In this document: in pieces, positions 12,147 through 43,525 of the stretch
Position numbering within the stretch: the first letter of the stretch is position 1
Layout: the number at the start of each line of letters is the position of its first letter
Source: an uncultured bacterium
GTDB taxonomy: Bacteria > Desulfobacterota > GWC2-55-46 > JAJCZF01
Length of the DNA stretch: 64,000 bases
Reading direction: 5' to 3'
Assembly (NCBI GenBank): GCA_965372515.1
Contig: CBDVCO010000001.1
Location: 686-64,685 of the forward strand
Translations under genes and position numbers: made by a program
The notes under the pieces: generated by a model
Seen by the model: only the letters and a program-made list of their open reading frames with translations
What the model was told of the DNA's origin: nothing
Databases searched by the model: none

Positions 12147-12186
12147 AAGCGCATATCCCCGGGCATTGTCAACAAAGGAGGCGGAG

Positions 12187-24819: not shown

Positions 24820-25043
24820 ATATTTTCTTGTTACCTTTGGTGGATCTAATTAAAACCGAATCAATAAATTTATTCCTTTAAAGGTCTAAAGTCAAGTACG
24901 CTTACAGGTATTTTACCCCTGCCCGGCGGGACCGGCCTTCTGTATCGTAGCCTATCTTTAAATAACTACGCCGCGTACTGAGGCGGTCCGTATGCTATGG
25001 ATCTTTGCCGCGCGGTATAATACCGGGCTGGCCCGGCAAAAGG

Positions 25044-26907: not shown

Positions 26908-27246
26908 GAAACCCCGCCAGCGGGGTTTTATACCACGCAACATTACGCACATAACATACGGACCGCCGCACTACGCGGCAACCCCATCTAAAGATCGCCT
27001 GGAGTATAAAAAGAAACCCCGCCAGTCCGCCGGACCAGTCCGGTCTTATACCACGCAACATTACGCACATAACATACGGACCGCCGCACTACGCGGCAAA
27101 GCCATCTAAAGATCGCCTAGAGTATAAAAAGAAACCCCGCCAGCCCGCCGGACCAGTCCGGTTTAATGCCACGCAACATTACGCCCATAGCATACGGCCC
27201 GCGACACTACGCGGCAAAGTCATTTAAAGATTGCCCGGGGTATAGA
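26908..27246. repeat. Three head-to-tail copies of a 105-118-bp unit, each with two hairpins and ending in TATAAAAAG.
   Basis: Copy boundaries at 26908, 27013, 27131. The core CCACGCAACATTACGCACATAACATACGGACCGCCGCACTACGCGGCAA is conserved. The 5' hairpin is AAACCCCGCcagGCGGGGTTT in copy 1 and CCGGACcaGTCCGG-containing in copies 2 and 3. Confidence 0.75.
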
Positions 27247-27281
27247 TTGAAGCCATCCGGTTTTTATGTTATTTCATATCA

Positions 27282-29390
27282 ATGACCTCGATGCCTGACA
27301 AGTACAACGCCCCCGACATTATCAAGGCGCTCTTTATCGTCATAGTGACATTTGTCGTATATATCCGGGCCATCCATGGCGGTTTTATATGGGACGATCA
27401 GACTTTTATCGTAGAGAACAGGTTCCTCCTCGACCTTGACGGGCTTTGGTCCATCTGGTTCACCACCGACCTCTCACACCAGTACTACCCGCTTGCTTCA
27501 ACCATCTTCTGGATAGAACGCCACATATTCGGCCTGAATCCAATTGGATATCACACTTTAAATATCGCCCTTCACTCTATAAACGCCCTGCTCGTTTGGG
27601 TCGCATGCCGAAGGCTAAAGCTTGGCGGGGCCTACGCTATCGCTCTGATCTTCTCACTCCACCCGGTGCACATAGACAGCGTGGCCTTTGTAAATGAAAT
27701 GAAGAACCTCGTCTCAGGGCTCTTCTACCTCTTGGCGCTCTTAAGCTTCCTCACCTTTGAAGAGAAAGGCTCAAAACGCTGGTACGCGCTCACGCTCCTT
27801 GCATTCGTATTAGCGCTTCTCAGTAAGACCGTCGCCGGCACCCTGCCGGCCGCGCTCTTGATAATACGCTGGATGAGACATAAAGATATAGGCCCCGGCT
27901 ACATCCTGAGGCTTGTACCGTTCTTTATTATAGCCGCCGCCTTCGCCGTTGTGACAATAGCCGTTGAGGTGGAAAATACCGGAGTGGATATCGGCATCAG
28001 CTTTGCACAGAGGCTGCTTGTAGCAGGGCGCGCCTCCTGGTTCTACGCGACGAAGCTTATATATCCAATGAAGCTCTCATTTATCTACCCGCGCTTTACT
28101 CCCGATATCACGAGCTTAACCCAATGGGCCTACCCGCTCGGGGTCGTGGCCCTAACGCTTCTACTCTTTGGCTTAAGAAAGAGGCTCACTCGCGCGCCTG
28201 TGGCCGCCGTAGCCTTTTTTCTCGTTACCATCTTCCCGGCCCTGGGCTTTGTCGACATAAACTTCTTTAACTACTCTTACGTAGCCGACCACTTCCAGTA
28301 TCTGGCCAGCCTTGCGCTCATAGCGCTCGCAGTCGGTGTTATTTGCCGCCTGATCAAAAACCTGCCAGGGCCCGTAGCTTACATAACGGCAATCTCAATA
28401 GTCTTTATCCTTGGAGTGCTTACCTTGAGCCGCTTAAGCGTGACCACGAACCACGAATTGCTCTGGAGGGATACCATAAAAAAGAACCCCGCGTCATGGG
28501 CGGCACACAACAATTTCGGCAATCTCCTCTTCGCCCAAAAACGCATACCGGAATCTATAAAAGAGTTTCAAATGTCGATCAGCATAAACCCCTACAGTGA
28601 GAAAGCCAGAGGCAACCTCGCTAACGCCTTGACCGAGACCGGCCGCTTTGATGAAGCGATAGACCAGTACGAAGCGGCGCTAAGGATAACCCCGGACAAT
28701 CCGCTCACGCTTATTAATATCGGCATAAATTACACACTGCAAAACAAATTCGAAGAGGCCGTCCGGAAATTCGAGCGCTCCATAGAGCTAAACCCTTATG
28801 ATTCATACGCTTTTTATAACTACGCACTGGCGCTTACGGGGCTAAATAGAGCAATTGATGCTGAGCGCGCCTATCTAAAGGCCATAGAGCTAAACCCCGC
28901 GGATACGGATTCAAGAAATAACCTGGCCAATATATACATGGACAAAAATGACCTTGACCGGGCTATGGCGCTCTACACTGAGGTGATAGAACTGCTCCCG
29001 ACCCACGCCCGGGCCAATAATAACCTCGGCATTATCATGAGCATAAGAAAAGAATACGAATTAAGCCTCTCCTACTTTGAGGTGGCCATAAAAGCTGACC
29101 CGGAATATGCCGATGCCCATTATAACTTCGCGATAACGCTTGAAGATATCGGCAGGCATAAAGAGGCCCTGGAAAAATACCAGGCGGTCTTAAGGCTTGA
29201 ACCGGACCACGCTGAAACAAATAATAATATCGGCTCCATCCTCTTAAAAGAGGGCGATCACCAGGCAGCGAAAGGATATTTTCAACAAGCGCTAAGGCTA
29301 GACCCGTCAAGCCCGATATACAAAAAGAACCTGGAGATCGCAGATAAACTCACCAGGGGCGACAGGGCCCGCGGCCTTAAAAGGCATTAA
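27282..29390 (+). CDS. TMTC/PMT-like GT-C glycosyltransferase-fold membrane domain (DUF1736-like) fused to C-terminal TPR repeats, 702 aa.
   Basis: About 11 TM N-domain with a loop-1 acidic motif (GGFIWDDQTF), then at least 8 TPR repeats. Paralogue of 41417..43525. Confidence 0.6.
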   Translation: MTSMPDKYNAPDIIKALFIVIVTFVVYIRAIHGGFIWDDQTFIVENRFLLDLDGLWSIWFTTDLSHQYYPLASTIFWIERHIFGLNPIGYHTLNIALHSINALLVWVACRRLKLGGAYAIALIFSLHPVHIDSVAFVNEMKNLVSGLFYLLALLSFLTFEEKGSKRWYALTLLAFVLALLSKTVAGTLPAALLIIRWMRHKDIGPGYILRLVPFFIIAAAFAVVTIAVEVENTGVDIGISFAQRLLVAGRASWFYATKLIYPMKLSFIYPRFTPDITSLTQWAYPLGVVALTLLLFGLRKRLTRAPVAAVAFFLVTIFPALGFVDINFFNYSYVADHFQYLASLALIALAVGVICRLIKNLPGPVAYITAISIVFILGVLTLSRLSVTTNHELLWRDTIKKNPASWAAHNNFGNLLFAQKRIPESIKEFQMSISINPYSEKARGNLANALTETGRFDEAIDQYEAALRITPDNPLTLINIGINYTLQNKFEEAVRKFERSIELNPYDSYAFYNYALALTGLNRAIDAERAYLKAIELNPADTDSRNNLANIYMDKNDLDRAMALYTEVIELLPTHARANNNLGIIMSIRKEYELSLSYFEVAIKADPEYADAHYNFAITLEDIGRHKEALEKYQAVLRLEPDHAETNNNIGSILLKEGDHQAAKGYFQQALRLDPSSPIYKKNLEIADKLTRGDRARGLKRH

Positions 29391-29505
29391 TTCTTGCACT
29401 AAAAGCGCCTTTATAGTAAGAGTTATAATAAAGATATATTCGTCTTTATATAATAAATACCGCCTAAACACTCTATCTTTAGAGTATTAGATCCAGGGAG
29501 CCCCC

Positions 29506-30150
29506 TTGAATAAGCCTGTACGCAAGAGAGTTCTAAAGACAATATTCGCCCTCTTCTTTCTGTGCTTCCTCTCTATTTCAGGATGCGAGAGTTTGAAGGA
29601 GGCGCTCGACCATAAATACTATCCACCCGGAAGCCTTGACGAAGAAGGCAAAGTAAAGACCAGCCAGACCGACAAGACCGAATACTACAACAAGTTCTAT
29701 GCTCAAATAACGCGCAGATTCACTATGAAGCAAGGAGAGATGAGAAATGTCACGCTCGATAGCCTTCCCAAAGGGCACGGAGGAGAGATCAACTGGACAG
29801 CCGCCGTGCTGGAGGGCTATATCAGCCCGCGAGGTTCGCTCGACCCGGACGCTGAAGAGGTACCCCCGCTCGACCTGAATATCTTTATAGAGGCCAAGGT
29901 CCCTCTGATGGCAAATGTGCTGTTTCCCCACTCTATCCACACGTACTGGCTTAGTTGCAACAACTGCCACCCGAAGATATTCATCCCGCAGGCCGGAGCC
30001 AACCCGATCAGCATGAACGAGATCTTCGAAGGCAAATGGTGCGGCCGGTGCCACGGCAAGGTGGCCTTCAAATTCTTTCCCATCGCCAATTGCAGGAGGT
30101 GCCATATCGTCATGAAATATCAATCCCTTGAAGAAGAGCACTTTAGATAG
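29506..30150 (+). CDS. Lipoprotein with a C-terminal triheme cytochrome c7-like (cytochrome c3 family) domain.
   Basis: Lipobox ISGCE. FPHSIH...CNNCH...CGRCH...CRRCH matches the c7 (PpcA-like) heme arrangement. TTG start with an AGGGAG SD. Confidence 0.65.
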   Translation: MNKPVRKRVLKTIFALFFLCFLSISGCESLKEALDHKYYPPGSLDEEGKVKTSQTDKTEYYNKFYAQITRRFTMKQGEMRNVTLDSLPKGHGGEINWTAAVLEGYISPRGSLDPDAEEVPPLDLNIFIEAKVPLMANVLFPHSIHTYWLSCNNCHPKIFIPQAGANPISMNEIFEGKWCGRCHGKVAFKFFPIANCRRCHIVMKYQSLEEEHFR

Positions 30151-30207
30151 GCCCGGGCCTTAAGACCCGTCCCCGGTCAATGGAGAGCACATTGAACGCC
30201 CGCCCCA

Positions 30208-31071
30208 ATGGGCACTATCGGGCCAGCGAGTTTACTAATGATAGATAGAAAAACCCTGGAGATAAGTTCCTTCTCGTTCTTTCTTCTGATTATTATCTCC
30301 ATCTATTCCATTTTGACTTACGAGAGAAACTCCCACTGGGCCGACGAGTTGACCCTGTGGGAGGATGCGCAATTAAAATCACCATCTAAATCAAGGCCTT
30401 ATACCTACGCAGGTGTTGCTTACGCAAAAGATAAACGCCTGAAGGAGGCCTACAATAACCTCTCTCGAGCGGTTATGCTAAACCCGGCCGATATAGAGGC
30501 CAGATATAACCTCTCGATATTATATATGGAGCTTGGGAGATTTGATCTTGCTGAGGTTGGGTTCAAAAACGCCATAGAGAGCAGGCCGGAACTCAAAGAG
30601 TCCTATCTGGCGCTCTTTGACCTCTACTCTAAACAAGACCGCCCCGAGAAAGCGGCCTCCATTCTCGCTAGCGCCCAGTCCATGTGGCCTAATAATATAG
30701 GGATACGCCTGAAACTCGCCACCGCAAACGCCAGGAGCGGAAAGCTAAAAGAGGCTAAAGAGGGATACAATTGGGTTTTAAAGCGCGCTCGTGCCCGGAC
30801 GGAGGCGATAAGCGGACTCGGCAACATATATATGCTTGAGGGAAACTACACCCTTGCGCTCTCATATTACGAAAAGGCCATTGAGCTTCGCCCAGGCGAC
30901 CCGGTTGCCATCTACAACGCGGCACTTGTCTCAGAAAAACTTGGTGATAATGAGAAGGCCCTGAAATTCTACGCTCTCTTCATCAAGGCCGCTTCGGCTT
31001 CTGCCGAGCCTTATAATGAAGCCGTAAGAAATGCAAGGGAACGGGTCATACAAATAAGATCAGGTAACTAG
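30208..31071 (+). CDS. Membrane-anchored TPR-repeat protein (alternative start at 30238).
   Basis: One N-terminal TM helix, then about 6 TPR repeats. Confidence 0.5.
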   Translation: MGTIGPASLLMIDRKTLEISSFSFFLLIIISIYSILTYERNSHWADELTLWEDAQLKSPSKSRPYTYAGVAYAKDKRLKEAYNNLSRAVMLNPADIEARYNLSILYMELGRFDLAEVGFKNAIESRPELKESYLALFDLYSKQDRPEKAASILASAQSMWPNNIGIRLKLATANARSGKLKEAKEGYNWVLKRARARTEAISGLGNIYMLEGNYTLALSYYEKAIELRPGDPVAIYNAALVSEKLGDNEKALKFYALFIKAASASAEPYNEAVRNARERVIQIRSGN

Positions 31072-31225
31072 GTGCTTTAGAAATATGGCCCGGGCCGCAG
31101 TACCAATGGCCGGCACGAAAACCTTGACACCAATATTTTTACTATAGTATCATAAAGAATAGTGCATATAGACAAATAGACGCTATCCTGACTTGATCAC
31201 CTAAAAGAAAAGAGAAAAATTTACC

Positions 31226-32284
31226 ATGATAAAAAATAAGCTCCTAAAGATACTCTTCTCTCTTGCCGTGCCTTTGATGCTCTTCAGCTGCGGAGAGCCG
31301 AAGCTGAAAGAGCTCGTATGGCCCAACCTCCCGGACATACCTAGAATCAGGTACGTAAAGAGCTATCGCGGCCCTTCGGACATAGTTAAGAAGAGTTTCC
31401 TCATAGAGTCCCTGCTTGGCTCTTCAGGGTCGGTACGCTTTAGTAAACCGATGGGCATACTCTACGACGACAAAAGAGACAGGCTCATAATTGCGGACAC
31501 CGCCAAAAAGACCATCTTTATCATGGACAAAAAAAATGAGAGCTATTCAGCCCTGCACATAAGAGGCAGAGAGGCGTTTACTAAGCCGATTACCCCCAGA
31601 CTGGACTCCAAAGGCAGAATATTCGTCACAGACAGCGCCGGCAAACAGGTTTTGATGTTCACCAATGCCGGCAAATACATAAAACATGTCTTCAAGGACG
31701 GCAGATGGACAAGGCCCAGCGGAATCGCAATAGACAAAAAAAGAAAGAGGATCTACGTCTCAGACACGCACAAGCACAGGATTCAGGTATTTGACGAAGA
31801 TAGCCTGAAACTCATCCAGACCATAGGGGGCATACGTGGAACGGAAGAGGGGGAGATGAACTTCCCCACACACATGTTCGTCAATAAAAATAACGGAGAC
31901 CTGCTAGTCACAGACACAATGAACGCCAGGGTGCAGATCTTTGACTACAAGGGACGTTTTAAACTCACATTCGGCCAATTCGGCGACGGGCCCGGATTTT
32001 TCGCTCGTCCCAAAGGGATCGCCGTAGACTCTGAAGACCATATCTATGTAGCGGACGCGGGCTTCAATAACATTCAAATATTTGATTACGAAGGCAACAA
32101 CCTCATGGCCTTTTCAGGCTTCGGACGGGGTAGAGGGGCCATGATCCTTCCTGCCGGGATCTATATAGACGATGACGACATTATCTATGTATCCGACTCC
32201 TTCAATGAAAGAATTAATATCTATGAATTCATGGGGGATAAGTACAAAGAGAGGAAAAAGAAGGGTATAGTCCTGGATAGATGA
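31226..32284 (+). CDS. NHL-repeat (6-bladed beta-propeller) lipoprotein.
   Basis: Lipobox LFSCG. Repeated YV(S/A)D...(I/V)Q(V/I)FD NHL blades. Confidence 0.65.
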   Translation: MIKNKLLKILFSLAVPLMLFSCGEPKLKELVWPNLPDIPRIRYVKSYRGPSDIVKKSFLIESLLGSSGSVRFSKPMGILYDDKRDRLIIADTAKKTIFIMDKKNESYSALHIRGREAFTKPITPRLDSKGRIFVTDSAGKQVLMFTNAGKYIKHVFKDGRWTRPSGIAIDKKRKRIYVSDTHKHRIQVFDEDSLKLIQTIGGIRGTEEGEMNFPTHMFVNKNNGDLLVTDTMNARVQIFDYKGRFKLTFGQFGDGPGFFARPKGIAVDSEDHIYVADAGFNNIQIFDYEGNNLMAFSGFGRGRGAMILPAGIYIDDDDIIYVSDSFNERINIYEFMGDKYKERKKKGIVLDR

Positions 32285-32477
32285 TTTGCGTGCAGGGGCC
32301 TTTAGCGTAATACGGATGCAAATTTACTCCCCGCCAGGTCAATAATAGCGTAACCAACTGTAATATATACACAAGTTCACCTCCACGCAAGCACTTATCC
32401 GGCAAGCCAACCCCGCCTTATCCCCCAATATTAAGAAAAAAATGCACGATATTGATTAAAATCCGTTAATTTTTTCC

Positions 32478-32506
32478 TTGACAGATTTTAATATTGGGTA
32501 TAATAT
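32478..32506 (+). promoter_or_regulatory. Sigma-70-type promoter (TTGACA, with TATAAT at a 15-nt spacer or TAATAT at 17 nt) about 270 nt upstream of the tetraheme cytochrome gene.
   Basis: Consensus hexamers read directly from the sequence. It implies a 5' leader of about 265 nt. Confidence 0.45.
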
Positions 32507-32648
32507 TGGTAGTAACTACGGATCAACATGGCTCATGAAGGGCCCTCTAGCTCCGGAGTACATAGAGGTTATGTACCTGTCGATTCATGACGGATCAGCA
32601 GGTATTAATGGCGATGATGCCGCAATACTGCCTACGGCTGGCAGTTTT

Positions 32649-32677
32649 GAAGGTATTTTTTTATTTAAAATACCTTC
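32649..32677 (+). promoter_or_regulatory. Perfect 11-bp AU-rich hairpin (GAAGGUAUUUU/AAAAUACCUUC) in the long leader of the tetraheme cytochrome gene.
   Basis: Inverted repeat read directly. It overlaps the 3' end of a possible 51-codon uORF. Confidence 0.4.
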
Positions 32678-32777
32678 AAAAGACGACTGACGAGGGTTGT
32701 CTTCCAGATCTACCGTCCCTTTATAGTAAAGAGACGGAGATTAAAAAGATTTAGTTGTTTTTGAAAGGAGTTACACA

Positions 32778-33719
32778 ATGAAAAAGCTACTTACTTTTGC
32801 AGTAGGTCTCGGCCTCGTCTTCGCCGTAGCCAGCACAGCGTCAGCCATTACAAATCCTACAGACTACTCTGATGGCGACATAGCTAACGGTATTGTAAAC
32901 TCAAGGCACAACCTTGGTTCAACAGGCGTTCACTTCAGGGCCGACAACACGAACTCATCAACCGACACTGCTTCAGGCGGCGGCGGCACGAGTGAGGTCT
33001 GTATCTTCTGTCACACTCCTCACCACGGTTCAACCAACGCTCCGTTGTGGAACAAAGGCTCACAGTCTACAGCTAACTACACAACCTACGGTACAACGGT
33101 TGGCGGAACAAGCGCCGACACCACTCCTGGCGCCGCGACACTCGCGTGCTTGAGCTGCCACGATGGTGTTAACACCTTTGACACCATTGTCAACTGGCCT
33201 GGTAAGAGCGGTACGGGTACCAACGATAACGGCGGCGTGTCAACAGACATGGGCTGGTTATTCACCGAAGATGGTAACACCATGAGCGACTACATGACTT
33301 CAGGCAGGTTGAACCTCGGTACCGATCTACGTAATGACCACCCGGTATCCATAACCTACACTGAGGACAGAGCGTCACTCAGGCCTGTAAGCACTCAGAT
33401 CACCAGTGTAACCATGGAGAACGATGTGCTTACCGTTGTAGCGACCACATCAACATCAGCCACGACAACTGAGAACCTGTGGGCTGTAGGTGGTTACCTT
33501 GACGGAACCGCTTCCATTGACGGTATCCTCAGGAACGGTAAGGTCGAGTGTTCTTCATGCCACGACCCGCACTTCAAAAACCAGTCTTGGGATGAAGTCG
33601 CCGGTACATGGGGCGGTGGTAATGTCGTTGATGGTTCAGACGACATGGACGGTCTCTTCCTTAGAAGGGTCGGCGGTAACAGTCTCAGCGGTGTATGCAG
33701 AACCTGCCACAACAAGTAA
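32778..33719 (+). CDS. Secreted Thr/Gly-rich tetraheme c-type cytochrome of the doubled-CXXCH family.
   Basis: Sec signal ending ASA. Four CxxCH motifs (CIFCHTPHH, CLSCH, CSSCHDPH, CRTCH) with the SRHNL...C.FCHTPH pattern. Poly-Thr/Gly linkers. AAGGAG SD. Confidence 0.65.
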   Translation: MKKLLTFAVGLGLVFAVASTASAITNPTDYSDGDIANGIVNSRHNLGSTGVHFRADNTNSSTDTASGGGGTSEVCIFCHTPHHGSTNAPLWNKGSQSTANYTTYGTTVGGTSADTTPGAATLACLSCHDGVNTFDTIVNWPGKSGTGTNDNGGVSTDMGWLFTEDGNTMSDYMTSGRLNLGTDLRNDHPVSITYTEDRASLRPVSTQITSVTMENDVLTVVATTSTSATTTENLWAVGGYLDGTASIDGILRNGKVECSSCHDPHFKNQSWDEVAGTWGGGNVVDGSDDMDGLFLRRVGGNSLSGVCRTCHNK

Positions 33720-33772
33720 TTGTTCTGGCATAAGAAAAAAGAAAACGGTTAGAGCTAAAGATAACCGTTTAG

Positions 33773-33811
33773 AAAAAAAAGACGGGCCGTTCTTCGGCCC
33801 GTCTTTTTTTT
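33773..33811. terminator. Strong bidirectional intrinsic terminator.
   Basis: A8-GACGGGCCG-ttctt-CGGCCCGTC-T8, preceded by a second hairpin at 33743-33770. Confidence 0.8.
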
Positions 33812-34115
33812 ATCTTCTCTTTGCCTTTCTCCGTCAATAACCAGAGAGAGATAAGCCGCGCCAAATTAAAATCTTTTAATAACCGCCTAATCATGATTTT
33901 ATGCTATCCGGTTAAAATAGTGCCAGAATATTAATGTCTTACAGGTACTCGCGGGGCTATATATTTGCAGATCATACCGTTAAAAATATCTTTCGTTCTT
34001 AACGCACTCGAGAATTTATCCTTATTGACAAGAGATAATCGCTACGGGAACCATAACCACCTTGCCACCATTACTTAAACGGGTGTCAAGACAAACTCTT
34101 ACGGAGACAGTCGCC

Positions 34116-35159
34116 ATGAAGAAATTCTTTTCCCTCTCTCTATCTTTCATTCTACTGCTAACCTTATCCATCGGTCTATATATATCGGAGGTCAAGGCTG
34201 AAGAGGGCACATCTGCCGAGCAAACCCCCGCGGATGAAACATATGACCCTGATAAAGATCTCGTGGCAAAGGTAAACGACCATGAGATAACATATACAAA
34301 CTTCCAGATAGCCATAAACAACTTAATGCCAAAATTGGCCTATCATAAGTCAGTCAGTGAAAGACGCATGAAGATGATAGAAGAAAAGGCCCTGAATAAT
34401 CTTATAATGGACCATCTACTCTATGAAGAGGCAATAAATAGATCCATCAAGGTAACCAAAAGAGAGATCAAACAGGCAACAAGAAATTTTCAAAACAAAC
34501 TGCCAAAAGGCACGACTCTTAGAAAGGTATTGAAACAAAGCAATATGACCAGAGATGACCTTAAAGAGGTATTTAGAAGGTCGATGCTGATCCGGAAGAT
34601 CAGAGACGAATCAAACGAGGAATTCAACAAAAAGGTAGAAGAGCGGGTCAACGAAGAGTACATGAAAGAGTACTATGACAATAATCTCGACAAATTCGTA
34701 GAGCCTGAGAAACTACACCTGAGCGAGATACTCTTGAAGGCGGATCCTTCAGGCGGCAAGAGGCACTGGCTGGAGGTAAGGGATCAAACACTCGCCGTAG
34801 AAGCCAGAATTCGTGGTGGCGCTGACTTTGCCGAGGTGGCAAAAGAGGTCTCTCAAGACGCTTATGCTCCCAAGGGGGGCGATATGGGTTGGGCGCACTC
34901 AGGTACCCTGACAGTAGGACTTGAGGAAGCGGCACGAAAGCTTAAAGCCGGAGAGATAAGCGGTCCGATAGAAACACTCTACGGCTATCACATCATAAAA
35001 CTTCAGAAAAGAAAGCCCAAAAAGCTTAAGCCGTACGATGAATTGAATCATGAGAAATTGAAGAAAGAACTCAATATGTCCGAGTATAAAAGGCTAAAAG
35101 ATGAATGGCTTGATTCTCTTAAAGAGAAGGCCGTAATCGTATATTTTGATGATAAATAA
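34116..35159 (+). CDS. Periplasmic SurA/PrsA-like peptidyl-prolyl cis-trans isomerase (parvulin/PpiC type).
   Basis: Signal peptide, SurA-N-like helical domain, parvulin domain (GGDMGW...GYHIIK). GGAGA SD before ATG 34116. Confidence 0.7.
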   Translation: MKKFFSLSLSFILLLTLSIGLYISEVKAEEGTSAEQTPADETYDPDKDLVAKVNDHEITYTNFQIAINNLMPKLAYHKSVSERRMKMIEEKALNNLIMDHLLYEEAINRSIKVTKREIKQATRNFQNKLPKGTTLRKVLKQSNMTRDDLKEVFRRSMLIRKIRDESNEEFNKKVEERVNEEYMKEYYDNNLDKFVEPEKLHLSEILLKADPSGGKRHWLEVRDQTLAVEARIRGGADFAEVAKEVSQDAYAPKGGDMGWAHSGTLTVGLEEAARKLKAGEISGPIETLYGYHIIKLQKRKPKKLKPYDELNHEKLKKELNMSEYKRLKDEWLDSLKEKAVIVYFDDK

Positions 35160-35649
35160 GAATCCACATCTTCTAATTACGGCTTTTACGGCTGCCTTGC
35201 TCCTTTCATTTGCCGGTGGTTGCGGTCAGGATAGGGCTGAGAAGAGTTCAAAAAAAGAACCTCTTGCCGCCAGCACTACCCCGGCCAGCTACGTTAAAGA
35301 GATACCTCCGGCAGAGCCTGGAGATATTGCTCTAGGCAAGCTCGTCTATGAAAAACACTGCCATTACTGCCATGGAAGAAAAGGGCGTGGCAAAGGTGCG
35401 GTCTCAATAGCGGTCGTCCCTAACCCGGCCGATTTTATACGCGACGAAAAACGTATGGCAGTAACCGACGAAGCACTCTTTAAGTCATTGACATACGGGA
35501 TTACCAAGGAGAGCGGCGGACAAAAGCTTGAGAAAGCGCTGGCAATGCCTCCTTTTAAGGGGGTCTTAACAGTCAAAGAACGTTGGGACGTTATTGCCTA
35601 CATAAGGGAGCTTGTCAGAGAATCAGGGAGCGAAAAAAAAGAAAATTAA
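35146..35649 (+). CDS. Monoheme class-I cytochrome c lipoprotein.
   Basis: Lipobox FAGGCG, single CHYCH heme site, distal Met region (LAMPPF). Overlaps the PpiC gene by 14 nt. Confidence 0.6.
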   Translation: MMINKNPHLLITAFTAALLLSFAGGCGQDRAEKSSKKEPLAASTTPASYVKEIPPAEPGDIALGKLVYEKHCHYCHGRKGRGKGAVSIAVVPNPADFIRDEKRMAVTDEALFKSLTYGITKESGGQKLEKALAMPPFKGVLTVKERWDVIAYIRELVRESGSEKKEN

Positions 35650-35683
35650 CTACATTTCTTATTATTTATAAAGCTTTAGACTT

Positions 35684-35692
35684 TGTTATAAT
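35684..35692 (+). promoter_or_regulatory. Extended -10 promoter element (TGtTATAAT) upstream of the cyt-FGE operon.
   Basis: TGnTATAAT read directly, about 107 nt upstream of ATG 35799 in an AT-rich spacer. Confidence 0.3.
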
Positions 35693-35798
35693 GAGGTGTA
35701 TATGATATAATTTCTTTAGCAATTACAATATCTTAAGCAATAGACAACTATAGACTGACATCAGGATTAGACCGGCCTTCTCTCAATATCTTAAATGG

Positions 35799-36818
35799 AT
35801 GGATACCCCAATGAAACATTCAAGTTTTAAAAGATTATCTTCTTTTCTACTCTTTTTCGCCGTTCTCCTAATCTCCATGCCTGCCTTTTCAAACCCGAAC
35901 GATTACCATCCGGAAACCGGCGAGCCCAAGTGCATGAACTGCCATACCCCTGATAGAAAATACTCAATAGATTATACACGCCAGGAGAGTTGCGCCGAGT
36001 GCCACGGATCAGGCTTGAGCGAACGATATCTATCCATAAACGGGCGCTATCAAAAGATAGAGGATCATGCCGGAAACGAGCCCATAATAGTGGCAAAAGT
36101 GAACTCGGCTAAAAAAAATCCAACCAAAGCCTCCACAAAGGAGATGATCCTTATAAAGGCAGGCGAATTCACCATGGGGTCTAACGACTGGTGGCCCAAG
36201 AGCCAACCGGAGCACAAAAGAGACCTGAAAGCATTTTATATAGATAAATTCGAGGTGACCAACCGCCGCTACATGGAATTCGTCAAGGCTACCGGCTACC
36301 CCCATCCAAAACACTGGAGAGGAGGAGTAATACCGCCGGACAGGCTGGAACACCCGGTAACTTATGTAAACTGGTTCGATGCCGATAATTTCTGCAGGTG
36401 GGAGGGTAAGAGGCTTCCCACCGAACCTGAGTGGGAAAAGGCGGCCAGAGGAACCGACAAAAGGACCTTTCCGTGGGGCGATAAATTCGATAAAGAGAAA
36501 GGGAATACGCCGCAATACGGCCACGGCGATACTCTACCGGTTGGGAGCTTTACCAGCGGTGTAAGCCCCTACGGTGCCCATGATATGGCCGGCAATGTCT
36601 TTGAATGGTTAAGCGACTGGTTTCAACCGTATCCCGGGAACAACCACCCGGATGAAAACTACGGCGAGCTGTACAAAATTGTCCGCGGCGGTTCATGGTA
36701 CGACTGCACATATTATAAATGCGGAATCAGCGCGCCTACCTATAACCGTATATTCTTCAACCCCTACACAAAGAACAATAATTTCGGTTTCAGATGTGTG
36801 AAAGATGATAAGAAATGA
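35799..36818 (+). CDS. Exported fusion protein: N-terminal diheme cytochrome c plus an FGE-sulfatase (SUMF1/formylglycine-generating-enzyme family) domain that retains the Cys-x4-Cys pair.
   Basis: Signal peptide, CMNCH and CAECH heme motifs. FGE-family core (HPVTYVNWFDA..FCRW.GKRLPTEPEWEKAARG; RGGSWYDCTYYKCG; FGFRCVKD). Confidence 0.65.
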   Translation: MDTPMKHSSFKRLSSFLLFFAVLLISMPAFSNPNDYHPETGEPKCMNCHTPDRKYSIDYTRQESCAECHGSGLSERYLSINGRYQKIEDHAGNEPIIVAKVNSAKKNPTKASTKEMILIKAGEFTMGSNDWWPKSQPEHKRDLKAFYIDKFEVTNRRYMEFVKATGYPHPKHWRGGVIPPDRLEHPVTYVNWFDADNFCRWEGKRLPTEPEWEKAARGTDKRTFPWGDKFDKEKGNTPQYGHGDTLPVGSFTSGVSPYGAHDMAGNVFEWLSDWFQPYPGNNHPDENYGELYKIVRGGSWYDCTYYKCGISAPTYNRIFFNPYTKNNNFGFRCVKDDKK

Positions 36819-38401
36819 AAAACTCTGAGAGAGAATTAAAAAACGGTGCCAGGTTCTTCGTCTTTACAACCTTTGTAAGCGGTGCCGTTATAATGGTCGT
36901 TGAGTTGCTAGGCTCAAGGATTATCGGCCCTTCTTTCGGAGTAAGCCTCTTCATCTGGACTTCTCTTATAACCGTCACTCTTGTGTCCCTCGCACTTGGT
37001 TACTGGCTCGGCGGGAAGCTCGCCGACCACAAGAGCTCCCCTACCGTACTCTTCACCATCATCCTCGTTGCCGGACTCTCACTCCTGCTGGTCCCGCTTA
37101 TAAAGAGCTTTATAATTTCCAACGCCCTCTTTCTCGGACTGAGGCTTGGCACCCTTGTAAGTTCTTCCATACTTTTCGGCCCGCCTCTCTTCCTCCTTGG
37201 CATGGTAACGCCCTATATTGTAAAGCTCAGCTTCGAGGACAAAACTACAATTGGAAAGACCGTCGGGTGGTTATATGCCATCAGCACGGCAGGGAGCGTA
37301 GTCGGAACCGTCTTAACCGGTTTTCTACTGATACCGAGACTTGGGGTAGACAATATAGTATACCTATCTTCGCTGGTACTTATTTCCTTAAATGCGATCT
37401 ATTGGCTCTTTTTTAAGAATCGATACATCTATCTTTGCCTGATTTTAATTCCTGTTGCGCTGATACTGATGCCTGAGAGACAGTTAAGTGTCTTACGCGA
37501 AGATGGTACCAAAGTCTCTGTTAAAGTTAATAAGGACAGCCCTTACGGACAAATCAAGGTGGTTGATTACTCATACGGCGACACACTTTACAGGGAATTC
37601 CTTATTGAGAATATAATACAGGGAGGAATTGACGTCAACTCCGGGTTATCGATCTTTAAATACCAATACCATCTCGAACAACTCGCGCACGCGTACGCAA
37701 ATGACGCCAGCAATGCATTAATAATAGGGCTTGGCGCCGGAATCGTGCCCCAAAGGTTCAAGCAGTTTTATAATATAAAGAGCGATATCGCCGAGATCGA
37801 CGAGATGGTGGTTAAGACGGCCAAAGAATACTTCTTTTTTGAACCGGATGAAGGCTCTGTCTTTACGCTCGACGGCCGTTACTTTCTACGCTCAACCAAT
37901 GGACGTTACGACATAATAATACTGGATGCTTTCTCAGGGGACAGTCCGCCAAGCCATATGGTAAGCATTGAAGCCTTTGAGCTTATGAAAAAGAGACTCT
38001 CACGAGACGGAGTATTACTCATTAACTTCCTTGGAAGCAATGAGAAAGAGAATACGTTTGTCCTTTCATCACTTGATAAGACACTAAGGGAGGTTTTTAA
38101 CTTTGTCGATGTCTATGTATCGGAAGAGTACTATCATCAATCGGCGCGGATCTTGAATTTTACATTTGTAGCCTATCTTGAAGACAAGAAGAAGGGAAAA
38201 AAGCTATCAATTCGCCCGCCTATACACGCGCAGTTCACCAGGGACCTGGAGGGACTTCTTGACAGACGGATTTTACTTTCCGGCGACGCCATTACACTTA
38301 CGGACAACTACAACCCAATCGACTTCTACGACATGAAAATGAGAGAATGGCTCAGGGAAGAGAGCATAAAAACAGCCGATCGAATGATTGTCGTTCATTA
38401 G
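36815..38401 (+). CDS. Fused multi-TM membrane domain plus spermidine-synthase-like (aminopropyltransferase-fold) domain.
   Basis: About 7-8 TM N-terminus, then a SpeE-like Rossmann core (LIIGLGAGIVP...DIIILDAF). Start overlaps the upstream gene by 4 nt. Confidence 0.6.
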   Translation: MKNSERELKNGARFFVFTTFVSGAVIMVVELLGSRIIGPSFGVSLFIWTSLITVTLVSLALGYWLGGKLADHKSSPTVLFTIILVAGLSLLLVPLIKSFIISNALFLGLRLGTLVSSSILFGPPLFLLGMVTPYIVKLSFEDKTTIGKTVGWLYAISTAGSVVGTVLTGFLLIPRLGVDNIVYLSSLVLISLNAIYWLFFKNRYIYLCLILIPVALILMPERQLSVLREDGTKVSVKVNKDSPYGQIKVVDYSYGDTLYREFLIENIIQGGIDVNSGLSIFKYQYHLEQLAHAYANDASNALIIGLGAGIVPQRFKQFYNIKSDIAEIDEMVVKTAKEYFFFEPDEGSVFTLDGRYFLRSTNGRYDIIILDAFSGDSPPSHMVSIEAFELMKKRLSRDGVLLINFLGSNEKENTFVLSSLDKTLREVFNFVDVYVSEEYYHQSARILNFTFVAYLEDKKKGKKLSIRPPIHAQFTRDLEGLLDRRILLSGDAITLTDNYNPIDFYDMKMREWLREESIKTADRMIVVH

Positions 38402-38436
38402 TAGAGGAACACAAATATAATATGGGAGAAAAATTA

Positions 38437-39243
38437 ATGAATCACCTATTTCATCAAGCAAAGATAAAATCGAAATTCTACCTTCCTCTTATGGCTATCC
38501 TGATCCTTTTATCCGGCTGCTCAAGGCCTCCTGAAGGAATGGTCAATATCGCCGAAGGGGAGACTATTATTGGCAGCAACGAGATAGACGCCGAAGGTAA
38601 GGCCATACAGTACGGTAATAAGAAACCGTGGTTTCTAAACGAACATCCGGAGCACAAGATCATTGTAAAAGAATTCTATATAGACAAGTTTGAAGTAACA
38701 AATAAAGACTATCGGGAATTCGTAGCCGCCACAAATCACAGAGCACCTTCCTACTGGCAACAAGGTTCGTTCCCGTCCAACTTGTCAGACAACCCTGTCA
38801 ACATGATCAGTTGGTTCGATGCAAAGGCGTACTGTAAATGGAAAAACAAGCGGCTGCCAACCGAGGCTGAGTGGGAAAGAGCGGCACGCGGGAACGACGG
38901 AAGAAGATTCCCATGGGGCAACGACTTCGACCTCAAAAAGCTCAATACCATGGGGATGCACGGTGGCACTACCCCGGTAGGGACATTCATGGAAGGCAAG
39001 AGCCCTTACGGTCTCTTTGATATGGCTGGTAACGTTCAAGAATGGACCCTGGACTCTTACAAGGCGTATTCTGGAAACGATTATGAGGATAACGACTTTG
39101 GCGAAAGGTTTAAAGTAGTACGCGGTGGAGGATGGGGCGGCATAGGCCATTACGCTTCAGAGGTATATGTAAGAACCGCATACAGAAACTATGCCCCGCC
39201 GGGAGGTACCTACGATGACGTTGGATTCAGATGTGCATGGTAG
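38437..39243 (+). CDS. FGE-sulfatase-domain lipoprotein lacking the catalytic Cys pair (PvdO-like, probably non-catalytic).
   Basis: Lipobox LLSGCS. FGE core (NMISWFDAKAYCKWKNKRLPTEAEWERAARG; RGGGWGG...VGFRCAW) without the Cx4C motif. GGGAGA SD before ATG 38437. The ORF-track start at 38347 is rejected. Confidence 0.65.
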   Translation: MNHLFHQAKIKSKFYLPLMAILILLSGCSRPPEGMVNIAEGETIIGSNEIDAEGKAIQYGNKKPWFLNEHPEHKIIVKEFYIDKFEVTNKDYREFVAATNHRAPSYWQQGSFPSNLSDNPVNMISWFDAKAYCKWKNKRLPTEAEWERAARGNDGRRFPWGNDFDLKKLNTMGMHGGTTPVGTFMEGKSPYGLFDMAGNVQEWTLDSYKAYSGNDYEDNDFGERFKVVRGGGWGGIGHYASEVYVRTAYRNYAPPGGTYDDVGFRCAW

Positions 39244-39301
39244 TAATTTTAACCTGAATGACAGACTTGAAAATGTCACTTATTGATCGAGGCTCAAAAA
39301 T

Positions 39302-41284
39302 ATGCTCAACTTCAAGAACATACGGACATCTCTCGATTACGCATATTCCAGCCTATCCTCCAGAATACTGTTGTGTGGAGCTATCCTACTCTTAGTCATC
39401 CTGTTTAAACCAACTCTGTCATATAGCCGTTTAGCGCCCTTAGACCCGCGTGATCCGTATATACATAGAACATTGACCCTGGACGTGGGCTTTAATTTTA
39501 GGACCTCTTCATCCAAAATAGGAGACTTTCAGTCAAAACGAAGATGGAGCTTCGGCGAAAGCTATAAAGTATCTATACGCGGCAGCGTGATCGACCCGAG
39601 ATTTATGGTCTACGACTATTATACGTTTTATTCTCAAAGCCGGAATTCCACCAATCAAACTGGGAGCAATCTTGGCCTGGGTATAAAATCAACCATTTTC
39701 AGAAAGTTCAGATTTCCGGTTACCTTATATGAATACCGCTTTTATGGCAAAGATGTAATCAGAGATTCGTTCGGTGCCAGATCGCTCTTAAGGTTCAGGA
39801 GACTTCCTACTACCAGACTAAGAGCAAATTATGACAGGACGGAAACCGACACCAATATCTCCTTCAATTCAAACTATCAATTGAAGATGGATAAGAATAT
39901 TGGTCCAACATCTAATACGTTGAATTACGCTTATTCTATAAATGACAATGGCGCTACGCAATCTAATCTTGCCATAACCAATGGAACGCGTTTATCGCGA
40001 GCCACAAAAATGAACGCCGTTCTAGCTCATAATGTGGCCACTCCATCTGATATATCGGACGAGGACAAAACAAGTACAGGATTTACAATGTCGCTAGTGT
40101 CCAGGACGAGCGATGACTTCAGGCAGTTACACCAATATGCGGCCTACTCAAGCGAAACCACTTCGACTGAAGGAACCGTGACTGTCGATGGACAAAGCTA
40201 CAACGGAGGATGGAATTTTGCATTACTAAAAAATCTATCTACAGGCGGAGGAATATCCGTTTCAGAGAGTAATTCTCATGGCATCTCCAGTGAGAGCACT
40301 TCAGAAAGTTTTTCTGCACACTGGAACCTGAATTATACCATTACCAGGGGACTATCCCTTGTATGGGACTCATCATATCGAAGCACTCGTTCAAGTATTA
40401 TCTCGATATCGACCGACGAATCGAGCAGCGAGTATTTCAATACCAACATGGGCGTTACGTACTCTAGACGGATTCGCTCCGCCTCATTCTCATCAAGTTA
40501 TAGGGTCGGCTATGTTGAAGAGCTCTCCCTGCCTCTTAATGGCGGAGGAACAGGACTACGTCAGGGGATTAGTTTAGGTCTAGGCAACCTACATTATAAA
40601 AAAGTCTACGTCAATACCTCGTACAATGCAAGCCGCGTTGACGTTCTGACTGGCGACATCTGGTCCACATCACAATCCCTATCCGTTACAGCAACACCAA
40701 GATACTGGACAAAATATGGAAGCATAGGCTCTTCATATAGATTCAGAACCTCTAGGAACTGGCGTAACCCTGAAGCGGTCTCATCACATAATTTAAACTT
40801 TAATGCCAGGAGCAGAGAAATAAGAAGGACAAGAGGATCTGCAAGCCAGAACTTTTCAATAGAAAAGTCCGGTCATTTAAGCGATTCTACAAATAAAATA
40901 AGTTCTTCCAGGCTTTCCATTTCTCACAACAGAACAGTCATGGGAGGAAAAACTCAACTTTCTTTCTTAATCAATTATCGCAAGCACGAGCATGGAAGGG
41001 CTCTTAACAAGCGTATAGATGCAAGATTCAAAGCGGGGTACTTTAGGCCACTTTTTAGGCGCGTCGCTTGGCGTTCCTATTTCGACTACTCTAGAGGCAA
41101 AGACCTTAGCAATAACACAAGCCATTCCGATACGAGCTTCGCAAACACTCTCGCATACAATCTAAGGAGTTGGAGCATTTTTGCGGAGCATCAAATTACA
41201 CATTCTTCAAGCAAGCATACCGCTACTATTATTAAAGAACAATTTATGTTAATCTTAAAAAGATCTTTCGTCAGGGGATTCTGA
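39302..41284 (+). CDS. Putative large outer-membrane beta-barrel protein, Ser/Thr/Asn/Arg/Tyr-rich, 660 aa.
   Basis: Signal-like N-terminus. Pervasive alternating hydrophobic/polar beta-strand pattern. C-terminal Phe (VRGF) typical of an OMP beta-signal. Confidence 0.45.
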   Translation: MLNFKNIRTSLDYAYSSLSSRILLCGAILLLVILFKPTLSYSRLAPLDPRDPYIHRTLTLDVGFNFRTSSSKIGDFQSKRRWSFGESYKVSIRGSVIDPRFMVYDYYTFYSQSRNSTNQTGSNLGLGIKSTIFRKFRFPVTLYEYRFYGKDVIRDSFGARSLLRFRRLPTTRLRANYDRTETDTNISFNSNYQLKMDKNIGPTSNTLNYAYSINDNGATQSNLAITNGTRLSRATKMNAVLAHNVATPSDISDEDKTSTGFTMSLVSRTSDDFRQLHQYAAYSSETTSTEGTVTVDGQSYNGGWNFALLKNLSTGGGISVSESNSHGISSESTSESFSAHWNLNYTITRGLSLVWDSSYRSTRSSIISISTDESSSEYFNTNMGVTYSRRIRSASFSSSYRVGYVEELSLPLNGGGTGLRQGISLGLGNLHYKKVYVNTSYNASRVDVLTGDIWSTSQSLSVTATPRYWTKYGSIGSSYRFRTSRNWRNPEAVSSHNLNFNARSREIRRTRGSASQNFSIEKSGHLSDSTNKISSSRLSISHNRTVMGGKTQLSFLINYRKHEHGRALNKRIDARFKAGYFRPLFRRVAWRSYFDYSRGKDLSNNTSHSDTSFANTLAYNLRSWSIFAEHQITHSSSKHTATIIKEQFMLILKRSFVRGF

Positions 41285-41416
41285 CAACGTTAGGACCGAG
41301 CGAAAACAAAAGCATTATAATGCAACATTCCATTTTATTCATATTTCTTATCATTGTCCTTAAGGATGGGAAATAAGGCAAACTCGAATAGAGCATATTA
41401 CTAATATTGCCAAGCG

Positions 41417-43525
41417 TTACCTTCCGGATCTTCCAATGGATTTTGCTCTATTTAGCCTGGCTTTAGCCTCTCTGTAGTCTGGATCGATCTCAAGGACCTT
41501 CTCGAAACTCTCGATTGCCGCCTCGAACTCGCCACTGTCTAAATATATAAGACCCAGATTAAAGTACGCGTCAGGCCCTTTGGGATCAACCATAACTGTC
41601 TCCTTATAGTAGCGCTCGGCCAGGCGAATATCACCGACATAGTGATAGACCCAGGCAAGGCCGTAAAGCGCCCTTGCGTTCTTTGGTTCAAGTCTCACGG
41701 CCTCTTTAAAAGAATTGATCGCACTCTGGTTATCCCCTACCTCCTGAAAACTCCATGCAAGATTATAGTGGGCAATACTACTAAAGGGATTTAACTCTAC
41801 TGCCTCTTTATAAAAACCAAGAGCGGCGGCCGGATTTCCGCTCTGCTTATAGGCCTGGGCGAGGTTGCCCCTGGCCCTCTCGTTTAATGGATTTACACGG
41901 ATTGTCTCCTTATAAAAATGAATCGCCTTCTCAACATCCCCTGCCTGATCATAAATAACCGCAAGGTTAAAAAAGGCCTTGTCGTTTAACGGATTTAATC
42001 TGATTGTCTTCTCATAGTAAGCCGCTGCATTCAATTGATCGTCCATATCATTATAAATAAGAGCCAGGTTATAGTACGGTTTATAGTTAAAGGGCTCAAG
42101 CCTGACGACCCGTTTATAGTACTCGATAGCCTCCTCGTTATCTCCCTGCTCGCGAAAAGCCGCCGCCAGACCCAGATTTACTATCGCGCTTTCAGGGGCC
42201 GAGTTTACCGTATCGGACCAAAGGCTCATGGAGTCCGTCCATACCATACTCCTCCTCACAGTAAAGACTCCGTATAGGGCAAAAATTGCGAGCAAAACAA
42301 TCAAGACGGCCTTTCGCCTCTCTGCGGCTCTCAAAAAAATGGCATGAAATATCACGGCGACTATCATGGCGAACCCGGCCGATGGCAGATAGAGATACCT
42401 GTCGGCAAAGCCGCCCGTCGAAACTACCGGTATATAGAGTACCGGCAGGAGCGGAATAATGATCCATAAAATAGGGAAGAATACGGCGGCCCTTCGCCTG
42501 AACGCCACAAGGAGCAAGCAAATAACAACCATTACCGCTATAGAGAGTAAGACCATAGGCTCGAAGAGCGAATAAAAAGGTTCAAGGACGTAGATGACGC
42601 TTAAGTTAGCGGGCCATAGGAGTTTGCCCATATAACGCAGGATTGCAGGAAAGATATTCACCATGGATCCATAAAGCCCGGTACCGGCCATCTCCTTTTG
42701 CGCAAACCCTCCAAGGGCATATGTACGAAGCACCATATAAATTACAGCCGCAAGAATATATGGGATATAGGTAAGATAGCGCTTTATGAAGGAGCGCCCT
42801 TTTGTCGAGAAGTCATAGCACCAGATAATGAGCAAAAAAGCCATGGCCGTCTCTTTACTGAGGAGCGCTATAAAGAAGAGGATAACAGAGAGAATCGTCC
42901 ATAGGGTTCTGCCCCTTAAGAACGCGTTCAGGTCGAGCCTTATGTATATATAGAAGGCCGCCAGAAGAAAGAGCGTGTATAGAAGCTCCGGAAGAGCAGA
43001 GACCCAGTTGACCACCTCGCTGTTAATGGGGTGAAGCGCGAAGATCAGGGCGGCAACAAAGGCCCAGTACGTAGCGCTTGAAGAGTGCGCCCTCTCAAGT
43101 GCAGCCTCTAGCTCCCCTTCCTGTTCCCCTTCGGACTTGTTCACCCCAAAGCCCATGGACCTAAAGAGCGTCGAGACGACGAGAAAGACGAAAAGGCTGT
43201 TCAGGGAGTGTAGGATAATATTTAAGAGATGAAAAACCACCGGGTAAAAACCGAAAAGATGATACTCGGCCAGAAATACCAGATGCATCACGGGCCTATA
43301 ATAATTTGACCCTGCCGTCTCCTTCATAAACGACCAGGAGGCGGAGAAGAAAATATCACCAAGATGCGCCGTATCGACGATCCAGGGATTGCCGAGCACC
43401 TGCTCCATATCGTCGTATACAAAGCCGTGAAATAGTGTCGGCAGATATACGATACAAGTTACTAGAAAGAGCGTAGCGAACAAAACGTATCCAACGCTCT
43501 TCTTGTGAGTTGGCAATATAGCCAT
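41417..43525 (-). CDS. Second TMTC/PMT-like GT-C membrane domain plus TPR protein, also 702 aa. Paralogue of 27282..29390.
   Basis: Same architecture (HGFVYDDMEQV loop motif, multi-TM, C-terminal TPRs). Confidence 0.6.
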   Translation of the reverse strand: MAILPTHKKSVGYVLFATLFLVTCIVYLPTLFHGFVYDDMEQVLGNPWIVDTAHLGDIFFSASWSFMKETAGSNYYRPVMHLVFLAEYHLFGFYPVVFHLLNIILHSLNSLFVFLVVSTLFRSMGFGVNKSEGEQEGELEAALERAHSSSATYWAFVAALIFALHPINSEVVNWVSALPELLYTLFLLAAFYIYIRLDLNAFLRGRTLWTILSVILFFIALLSKETAMAFLLIIWCYDFSTKGRSFIKRYLTYIPYILAAVIYMVLRTYALGGFAQKEMAGTGLYGSMVNIFPAILRYMGKLLWPANLSVIYVLEPFYSLFEPMVLLSIAVMVVICLLLVAFRRRAAVFFPILWIIIPLLPVLYIPVVSTGGFADRYLYLPSAGFAMIVAVIFHAIFLRAAERRKAVLIVLLAIFALYGVFTVRRSMVWTDSMSLWSDTVNSAPESAIVNLGLAAAFREQGDNEEAIEYYKRVVRLEPFNYKPYYNLALIYNDMDDQLNAAAYYEKTIRLNPLNDKAFFNLAVIYDQAGDVEKAIHFYKETIRVNPLNERARGNLAQAYKQSGNPAAALGFYKEAVELNPFSSIAHYNLAWSFQEVGDNQSAINSFKEAVRLEPKNARALYGLAWVYHYVGDIRLAERYYKETVMVDPKGPDAYFNLGLIYLDSGEFEAAIESFEKVLEIDPDYREAKARLNRAKSIGRSGR

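Follow-up and report, generated by a model that had tools for sequence, protein, structure and literature searches.

The 64,000-nucleotide stretch of DNA analysed here (the window) comes from an uncultured bacterium that is probably related to the Thermodesulfobacteriota. Scans of its open reading frames (ORFs) and protein families reveal ten genes, all on the forward strand, between two genes for proteins designated A and B, each of which joins a GT-C glycosyltransferase domain to tetratricopeptide repeats (TPRs). We interpret the region from 29.5 to 41.3 kb as a biogenesis cluster for a filament ("nanowire") of an OmcE-type tetrahaem cytochrome, and we give this explanation as a whole, including the glycosyltransferase roles of A and B, a probability of roughly 0.55. 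Loci of this kind are already known; what is new is a variant that combines a lineage-specific accessory block with two TMTC-like GT-C/TPR glycosyltransferases.

The gene content given in a preliminary description of this DNA was confirmed by the family scans: a c7 lipoprotein, a TPR protein, an NHL protein, tetrahaem and monohaem cytochromes, a SurA-like protein, an FGE unit and an outer-membrane protein. The two ORFs of 702 residues with C-terminal TPRs and a TMTC-like architecture were likewise found where they had been placed. Gene A is co-directional with the cluster and lies 115 nt upstream of the c7 start. From A to B, the locus reads as follows:

27282..29390 (+): GT-C/TPR protein A, A-type, 702 residues; GT-C domain with 11 transmembrane (TM) helices (residues ~1-400) and predicted periplasmic TPRs
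29506..30150 (+): c7-type trihaem cytochrome lipoprotein; three CXXCH, lipobox ISGC; Pfam Cytochrome_C7, E 1.3e-12
30208..31071 (+): membrane-anchored TPR protein, 287 residues; Pfam TPR families
31226..32284 (+): NHL-repeat six-bladed beta-propeller lipoprotein; lipobox LFSC; Pfam NHL, E 4.5e-31, and DUF5128
32478..32506 (+): promoter-like site TTGACA-17-TAATAT; 10/12 matches in a consensus scan, a pattern match only
32778..33719 (+): OmcE-family tetrahaem c-type cytochrome, putative nanowire subunit; 313 residues, Sec signal peptide, ASA cleavage site
33773..33811 (no strand assigned): strong bidirectional intrinsic terminator; perfect 17-bp stem, A8/T8 flanks, directly after the subunit gene
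34062..35159 (+): SurA-like periplasmic peptidyl-prolyl isomerase (PPIase); Pfam Rotamase, E 6e-20, and SurA_N_3
35146..35649 (+): monohaem class-I cytochrome c lipoprotein; Pfam Cytochrome_CBB3 and Cytochrom_C
35799..36818 (+): secreted FGE-fold protein with an N-terminal dihaem extension (two CXXCH); Pfam FGE-sulfatase, E 1.6e-59
36815..38401 (+): fused MFS/spermidine-synthase-like membrane protein; NCBIfam NF037959, 250.7 bits (cut-off 40)
38347..39243 (+): FGE-fold lipoprotein; lipobox LSGC, no CxxxxC pair; Pfam FGE-sulfatase, E 7.5e-56
39302..41284 (+): outer-membrane beta-barrel, 660 residues; 32 predicted strands, C-terminal Phe (...SFVRGF), no family match
41417..43525 (-): GT-C/TPR protein B, TMTC-like, B-type, 702 residues; gene convergent with the barrel gene

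The tetrahaem subunit and its accessory genes

In a phmmer search of the PDB, the subunit matched the OmcE filament of Geobacter sulfurreducens (7tfs, E 1.8e-15) and the OmcE of Desulfuromonas soudanensis (9yuq, E 1.5e-11), and a profile of 25 subunit sequences retrieved these two filaments (E 2e-22 and 8e-16) and no other PDB entry. The significant alignment spans residues ~34-195, that is, the N-terminal half with two haems, and the two C-terminal haem motifs score weakly while remaining collinear with those of OmcE. In this regard, the subunit and both OmcE proteins share, in the same order, (R/K)H(N/D)L, CxxCHTPH, PLWNR, C(L/M)SCHDG, NLGTDLSNDHP(V/I), C(S/G)SCH and a C-terminal CxxCHxK, together with a Sec signal peptide and a coil-rich sequence. 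Besides the four CXXCH motifs, the 25 homologues have H44, H82, H188 and H265 without exception and H83 nearly always, which makes the four invariant residues candidate distal haem ligands. The subunit family is large, with more than 5000 matches among the candidates scored, and at least 553 OmcE-like loci were confirmed in GTDB species representatives of many phyla. In some close homologues (P0132 and P0240) the second haem motif is followed by an insert that contributes an additional Cys pair (CNLCHN / CYICH); these proteins resemble the five-haem OmcE-like proteins described elsewhere (bioRxiv 10.1101/2025.10.22.684050).

The subunit gene is preceded by a gap of 493 nt that holds the promoter-like site, and is followed directly by the terminator. 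This arrangement suggests a monocistronic, highly expressed gene, as is expected for an abundant structural protein. Rfam models searched over 22-48 kb gave sub-threshold matches only, on the terminator hairpin, and no riboswitch upstream of the subunit gene.

The accessory genes resemble those of published nanowire loci. Besides the subunit, the published omcE cluster encodes two multihaem cytochromes, beta-propeller lipoproteins and a large beta-barrel (bioRxiv 10.1101/2025.10.22.684050), and the same kinds of neighbour (multihaem cytochromes, a beta-propeller lipoprotein and a large barrel) are present here. Unlike omcE clusters, which have two propellers, the window has a single NHL propeller; its additions are the SurA-like PPIase and the FGE / MFS-spermidine-synthase / FGE genes, and its barrel belongs to a rare family. 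The c7 protein matches the NCBIfam family TIGR04257, nanowire_3heme, with 63 bits (cut-off 40). In addition, we surveyed the best 80 of the at least 553 OmcE-like GTDB loci, searching as much as 10 kb to either side with the window proteins: the NHL propeller was the most conserved neighbour (53/80), followed by the PPIase (47/80), the c7 cytochrome (41/80) and the monohaem cytochrome (22/80). The homology to OmcE and the match of the accessory genes thus lend sequence support to the earlier suggestion of a filament-like exported redox protein.

A second known system, the omcS-companion (osc) operon of G. sulfurreducens, is described as encoding OscH for folding, OscE, OscF and OscG for secretion and the periplasmic cytochromes OscI and OscJ (Shen et al. 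2025, in the summary of PMC13194489). Against that summary, the window likewise offers candidates for folding (the PPIase) and secretion (the NHL propeller and the barrel), as well as two small periplasmic cytochromes. The subunits differ, being of the OmcE type with four haems here and of the OmcS type with six haems in the osc system. Individual window proteins may have counterparts, as putative orthologues, among the individual Osc proteins. Unlike the window, the osc operon is not said to contain FGE, MFS-spermidine-synthase or GT-C/TPR genes in the summary of PMC13194489.

The lineage-specific genes lie downstream of the subunit gene. The structural model of the barrel is all-beta with 32 strands (pLDDT 90), and its family is rare, with 63 representatives (50% clustering) among 1.84 billion proteins and no Pfam model. 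If real and one closed barrel, it would rank among the largest known outer-membrane barrels made of a single chain. The dihaem FGE-fold protein keeps a C-terminal CxxxxC pair (DCTYYKC) and has PDB homologues in ToxD, FGE, EgtB and PorK; the FGE substrate motif [CS]x[PA]xR is absent from the cluster proteins. The FGE fold also occurs in PorK/GldK, the ring lipoproteins of the type IX secretion system (weak matches), and by analogy a structural role of the FGE-fold proteins is possible. As to gene starts, that of the PPIase is probably the ATG at 34116, and the second FGE gene likely starts near 38437.

The GT-C/TPR proteins A and B

A and B align end to end with 28% identity (E 3e-57), and their orthologues are 653-702 residues long. 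Judged from these sequences they are old, distant paralogues, and the equal length of 702 residues is a coincidence, since orthologues vary. A recent duplication, which the equal length might suggest, was rejected on the same grounds. Pfam places ~8 TPRs in the C-terminal part of each protein, from about residue 405 to the end, and the N-domain of A gives a weak match to PMT_2 (31 bits, cut-off 26.1).

Sequence searches of the PDB with both N-domains, and with a profile of 17 sequences, came back empty, and the fold was for this reason established by modelling. An AlphaFold (AF2) model of residues 1-403 of A, built on the 17-sequence alignment that covers both A-type and B-type proteins, is confident (pLDDT 86, pTM 0.89). 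Its top 23 Foldseek matches in the PDB are all GT-C enzymes, namely STT3, ArnT, PglB, Pmt4, Pmt1/2, AftD, AftA and EmbB, with probabilities of 0.90-1.00 and TMq of 0.34-0.51. Only A was modelled; B is assigned to the fold by its alignment over the whole domain and by a hidden Markov model (HMM) of A-type N-domains, which matches it with E 6e-42. Five elements are invariant in the 17 sequences of both types: D38, D39, H127-P128, K182 (the Lys of external loop 3, EL3) and Y340 (the Tyr of EL5). Hydropathy, the model helices and the alternation of K/R-rich loops agree on ~11 TM helices with the N-terminus inside, a topology by which the DD loop (the first loop, directly after TM1) and the TPR array are predicted to lie in the periplasm. 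The proposal that the N-domains are GT-C domains with an acidic motif in loop 1 (WDDQ in A, YDDM in B) thus held up in structure prediction, with a conserved acidic loop predicted on the periplasmic side.

The two types can be told apart by their motifs, which read FIWDD, SHQYYP, SKTV, PALG and ADHFQY in the A-type and FVYDD, SNYYRP, SKET, PLLP and ADRYLY in the B-type. Compared by eye with the TMTC motifs M1-M7 (DD, SHKSYRP, RxD, KE(T/Q)xxT, DW, PxxP and ERxxY; PMC7801869, Table 4), B has five of the seven ligand-binding motifs, i.e., M1, M2, M4, M6 and M7, with M3 and M5 not located by this means. Like eukaryotic TMTC1-4, A and B have ~11 TM helices followed by a TPR array on the lumenal or periplasmic side, and the B-type shares with them DD in EL1, a SHKSYRP-like motif, KET in EL3, PxxP in TM9 and (E/D)RxxY in EL5; ArnT and STT3 are the nearest solved folds for the TMTCs as well. 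Full-length TMTC homologues in uncharacterised prokaryotes, including one deltaproteobacterium, had already been noted (PMC7801869). From sequence and architecture, the likeness to TMTCs is real and strict membership in the family is unproven. Unlike in TMTCs, the donor would be undecaprenyl-linked and not dolichyl-linked, and cadherins cannot be the acceptors. No bacterial member of the TMTC type is known to have been characterised biochemically.

A further comparison is offered by the protein O-mannosyltransferases (PMTs, GT39) of actinobacteria and fungi, which have the GT-C fold and an acidic loop-1 motif and to which A has its weak PMT_2 match. These enzymes act on Ser/Thr-rich secreted proteins, and a similar action of A and B is proposed by analogy. 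Pfam shows the combination of PMT or PMT_2 with MIR that marks the GT39 PMTs in neither protein: B matches neither PMT nor PMT_2, the TPR array takes the place of MIR in both, and identity to the Pmt structures is 10-14%.

Genomic context and linkage in relatives

B-type genes stay with this cluster variant in six further contigs, at 42-85% identity (contigs are designated by our L numbers). In L087 (85%) and L086 (60%) the arrangement is that of the window, with the B-type gene facing the barrel gene on one side and diverging from a gene for a 911-residue protein on the other. This protein is encoded in the window at

43687..46422 (+): 911-residue protein; no recognisable domain, no signal peptide, no Pfam or NCBIfam match

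and its gene and the B-type gene point away from each other in all relatives examined (L086-L090). In L084 (47%) the B-type gene lies inside the cluster, between the subunit and PPIase genes, with a different genomic flank on the left and a further convergent TPR protein after the barrel; of all contigs, this one argues most strongly for B travelling with the cluster. In L089 (44%) and L090 (42%) the B-type gene is found at the cluster end, and two tandem B-type copies occur in L088. L089, a groundwater deltaproteobacterial metagenome-assembled genome, holds at 9591-12897 two tandem B-type genes together with a 239-residue GT2 protein, weakly PgfS-like, and a hexapeptide-repeat transferase, so that the junction of the 911-residue gene and the cluster, at the same position as gene B of the window, is a small glycosylation island. 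In addition, L083 has a third GT-C/TPR subtype, ~30% identical to both A and B, whose gene immediately precedes an orphan OmcE-like gene. An A-type gene next to the cluster is seen in the window and otherwise only in L001 (68%).

Of the accessory block, the FGE / MFS-spermidine-synthase / FGE genes are kept with the barrel in L004 and L084; L085 has the first two genes of the block before the contig ends, and in L089 and L090 FGE-fold genes adjoin the barrel, with no MFS gene within the stretch seen. An orthologue of the 287-residue TPR gene precedes or follows the barrel gene in L004, L089 and L090.

The region had been described as an accessory island, a notion for which we find little. GC content is indeed 6-7 points lower over 29-46 kb than in the flanks (~0.45 against ~0.52), but at third codon positions the GC values of the cluster overlap those of the flanks. 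There are no tRNA genes in the window and no repeats were found bracketing the cluster. The sole integrase nearby is of the Xer type and in the relative L001 adjoins HslV/HslU-type genes (proteasome and AAA families). The borders are kept in relatives, with lepA on one side and the 911-residue protein, ThiI and M50 genes on the other. Together, these features do not fit a recent island. In more distant genomes (L004 and L084) the module is found in other genomic contexts; the cluster is modular over long times, yet not a recent insertion at this site.

Two side observations concern the surroundings. The divergent intergenic region between lepA and gene A is filled by three tandem copies of a 118-nt unit (26917-27270; the further copies 93% and 71% identical to the first), and the lepA-lepB interval holds a partial copy in inverted orientation (24939-25000). 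The unit has no Rfam match and its predicted folding is no better than that of shuffled sequences; it may be a REP/MITE-like intergenic repeat. At the right window edge, ~20 kb off the cluster, a further multihaem c-type cytochrome ORF with five CXXCH is found (62887-63933, -).

Glycosylation, rival explanations and significance

According to the preliminary description, A and B may O-glycosylate the Ser/Thr-rich secreted cytochrome or the outer-membrane protein. Extra densities on the OmcE filaments of G. sulfurreducens have been read as extensive glycosylation (PMC9473688), and 15-70 genes, among them those for GT2, GT4 and GT39 enzymes and TPR proteins, come after the omcE cluster of Geobacter and Geomonas (bioRxiv 10.1101/2025.10.22.684050). 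The idea is therefore reasonable: by analogy with this precedent, glycosylation of the cytochrome by the window enzymes is plausible, and is no new concept. The window resembles the clusters of freshwater Geobacter in that glycosyltransferase and TPR genes adjoin, and differs in having two genes in which both functions are fused instead of an extended glycosylation region.

From fold, motifs and topology, the homology to OmcE, the gene content and the conserved B-type linkage, we infer the following course of events, including filament formation, the acceptor and the sugar donor. The subunit would be made from its own promoter-like site up to the strong terminator, exported by Sec and loaded with four bis-His haems. 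In the periplasm it would be handled by the SurA-like prolyl isomerase and the NHL propeller lipoprotein, and it may then be passed through, or anchored in, the very large outer-membrane barrel, with electrons supplied by the c7 trihaem and monohaem cytochromes. A and B would be inner-membrane GT-C glycosyltransferases that use a polyprenyl-phosphate sugar, their periplasmic TPR domains being likely binding sites for the acceptor protein, as in eukaryotic TMTCs. B would most likely be the dedicated O-glycosyltransferase, placing sugars on Ser/Thr residues of the coil-rich surface loops of the subunit before export, like those proposed for OmcE of G. sulfurreducens; A could be a more recently recruited member of a broad subfamily and may act on the subunit or on another envelope protein. 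A dedicated role in filament glycosylation is credible for the B-type, at somewhat under even odds, whereas the A-type is more likely a general enzyme that lies at the cluster edge by chance, or one recently recruited.

Several observations weigh against these assignments. The subunit is ~80-100 residues longer than OmcE, only its N-terminal half aligning significantly. Unlike TMTCs, neither N-domain matches Pfam DUF1736, even at E<=10, and that of B matches no Pfam family of any kind. Marine genera lack the glycosylation genes of Geobacter, and among them D. soudanensis has an unglycosylated filament (bioRxiv 10.1101/2025.10.22.684050). No polyprenyl-phosphate sugar synthase or sugar-nucleotide gene is present among the window ORFs scanned, the flanking ones being housekeeping or regulatory genes, and the notion of a self-contained locus has to be dropped on this account. 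Nor does composition point to glycosylation. The "poly-Thr/Gly linkers" attributed to the tetrahaem protein were overstated, its longest Ser/Thr run being five residues, and its Ser plus Thr content of 24% is normal for a cytochrome family with a median of 21% and a range of 15-26% regardless of GT-C neighbours. Beta-barrel outer-membrane proteins are generally Ser/Thr-rich; the composition of the 660-residue protein is what its all-beta model leads one to expect and is therefore uninformative, leaving no specific support for this protein as a glycosylation target.

Further points on the same side concern the enzymes and their genes, and bear on two rival explanations of A and B. One is that they serve the envelope in general, modifying a glycolipid or many periplasmic or outer-membrane proteins, and stand beside the cluster only by inherited gene order. 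They belong to a very large family of wide phylogenetic range, with more than 2000 matches for the A-type and 946 for the B-type at E<=1e-20, among 8000 candidates scored, spread over Deltaproteobacteria, Verrucomicrobia, Elusimicrobia and Methanoperedens. A-type relatives in L002 (52%) and L091 (46%) lie among housekeeping genes without cytochromes, an outcome that the preliminary description had named as one that would refute its proposal; this applies to the A-type and not to the B-type, which keeps to the cluster variant. A GT-C N-domain occurs within 10 kb of only 2/80 OmcE-like loci, both from Gallionellaceae, even with an HMM search, from which it follows that such glycosylation is no general requirement of the OmcE-like family. 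B-type genes, moreover, are always also beside the 911-residue / ThiI / M50 block, and part of their linkage could thus be inherited synteny. Gene B runs towards the cluster as a transcription unit of its own, without co-transcription, whereas A is co-directional, so that the two do not form a bracketing pair as a unit. Against inherited gene order stand the position of the B-type gene within the L084 cluster, between subunit and PPIase genes and next to a different left flank, the three GT-C/TPR subtypes that each lie immediately beside an OmcE-like gene in the lineage, the expansion of glycosylation genes at the same junction in L089, and the independent report of glycosyltransferase and TPR genes after Geobacter omcE clusters (bioRxiv 10.1101/2025.10.22.684050). 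We consider it rather unlikely, on balance, that A and B are general enzymes of this kind.

The other rival takes A and B as inactive scaffolds or chaperones whose TPRs hold unfolded subunits during haem loading or export. In this regard, A lacks the metal-binding Glu of M4 (KT for KE) and the Arg of M7 (DH for ER), and B matches no Pfam glycosyltransferase model. TPR proteins are common assembly factors, and a separate one is encoded in the cluster. Loss of catalysis is nevertheless very improbable, given that DD, the EL3 Lys, the HP motif and the EL5 Tyr are invariant in both types, that B keeps its five TMTC ligand-binding motifs and that a small GT2 adjoins the B-type genes of L089.

A different question is whether the tetrahaem protein forms a filament at all. 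In a porin-cytochrome conduit of the Mtr/Pcc type, electrons would cross the outer membrane through cytochromes sheathed by the barrel, with the tetrahaem protein serving as terminal reductase at the cell surface. In favour of a conduit, the structural search with the barrel retrieved MtrB (6r2q_B) over 429 aligned residues, the cluster encodes several periplasmic cytochromes, and, unlike for OmcE, filament formation in this uncultured, Thermodesulfobacteriota-like lineage is a prediction. OmcE filaments are, however, the only solved relatives of the tetrahaem protein, no deca- or multihaem partner of the MtrA/OmaB type was found, and the set of NHL, PPIase and c7 genes is a nanowire-assembly signature in the 80-locus survey and, as far as its summary goes, in PMC13194489. 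The monocistronic subunit gene with its strong terminator also suggests an abundant structural protein, and a conduit appears improbable.

A filament-biogenesis cluster with associated glycosyltransferases remains our preferred reading. A bolder version of it, in which B is a dedicated O-glycosyltransferase of OmcE-type filaments and, in addition, the barrel, the two FGE-fold proteins and the MFS/spermidine-synthase protein form a hitherto undescribed apparatus for nanowire export and anchoring, is unlikely.

According to a review, the assembly of cytochrome nanowires is relatively little known (PMC12307469), and the field acknowledges that it has yet to learn how these filaments are folded, decorated and exported. 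In this regard, a compact OmcE-type cluster of ten genes narrows the candidate glycosyltransferases to two, compared with the 15-70 glycosylation genes of Geobacter. As one of the two enzymes is linked to the cluster in several genomes, it becomes more tractable to ask which enzyme glycosylates the filament and how this affects conductivity, bundling and insulation. Catalysis by animal TMTCs is still argued mainly from sequence and models, and the window proteins offer a bacterial entry point to enzymes of this type. If B is indeed dedicated to the filament, this would be the first substrate and function assigned within the large, uncharacterised family of prokaryotic TMTC homologues.

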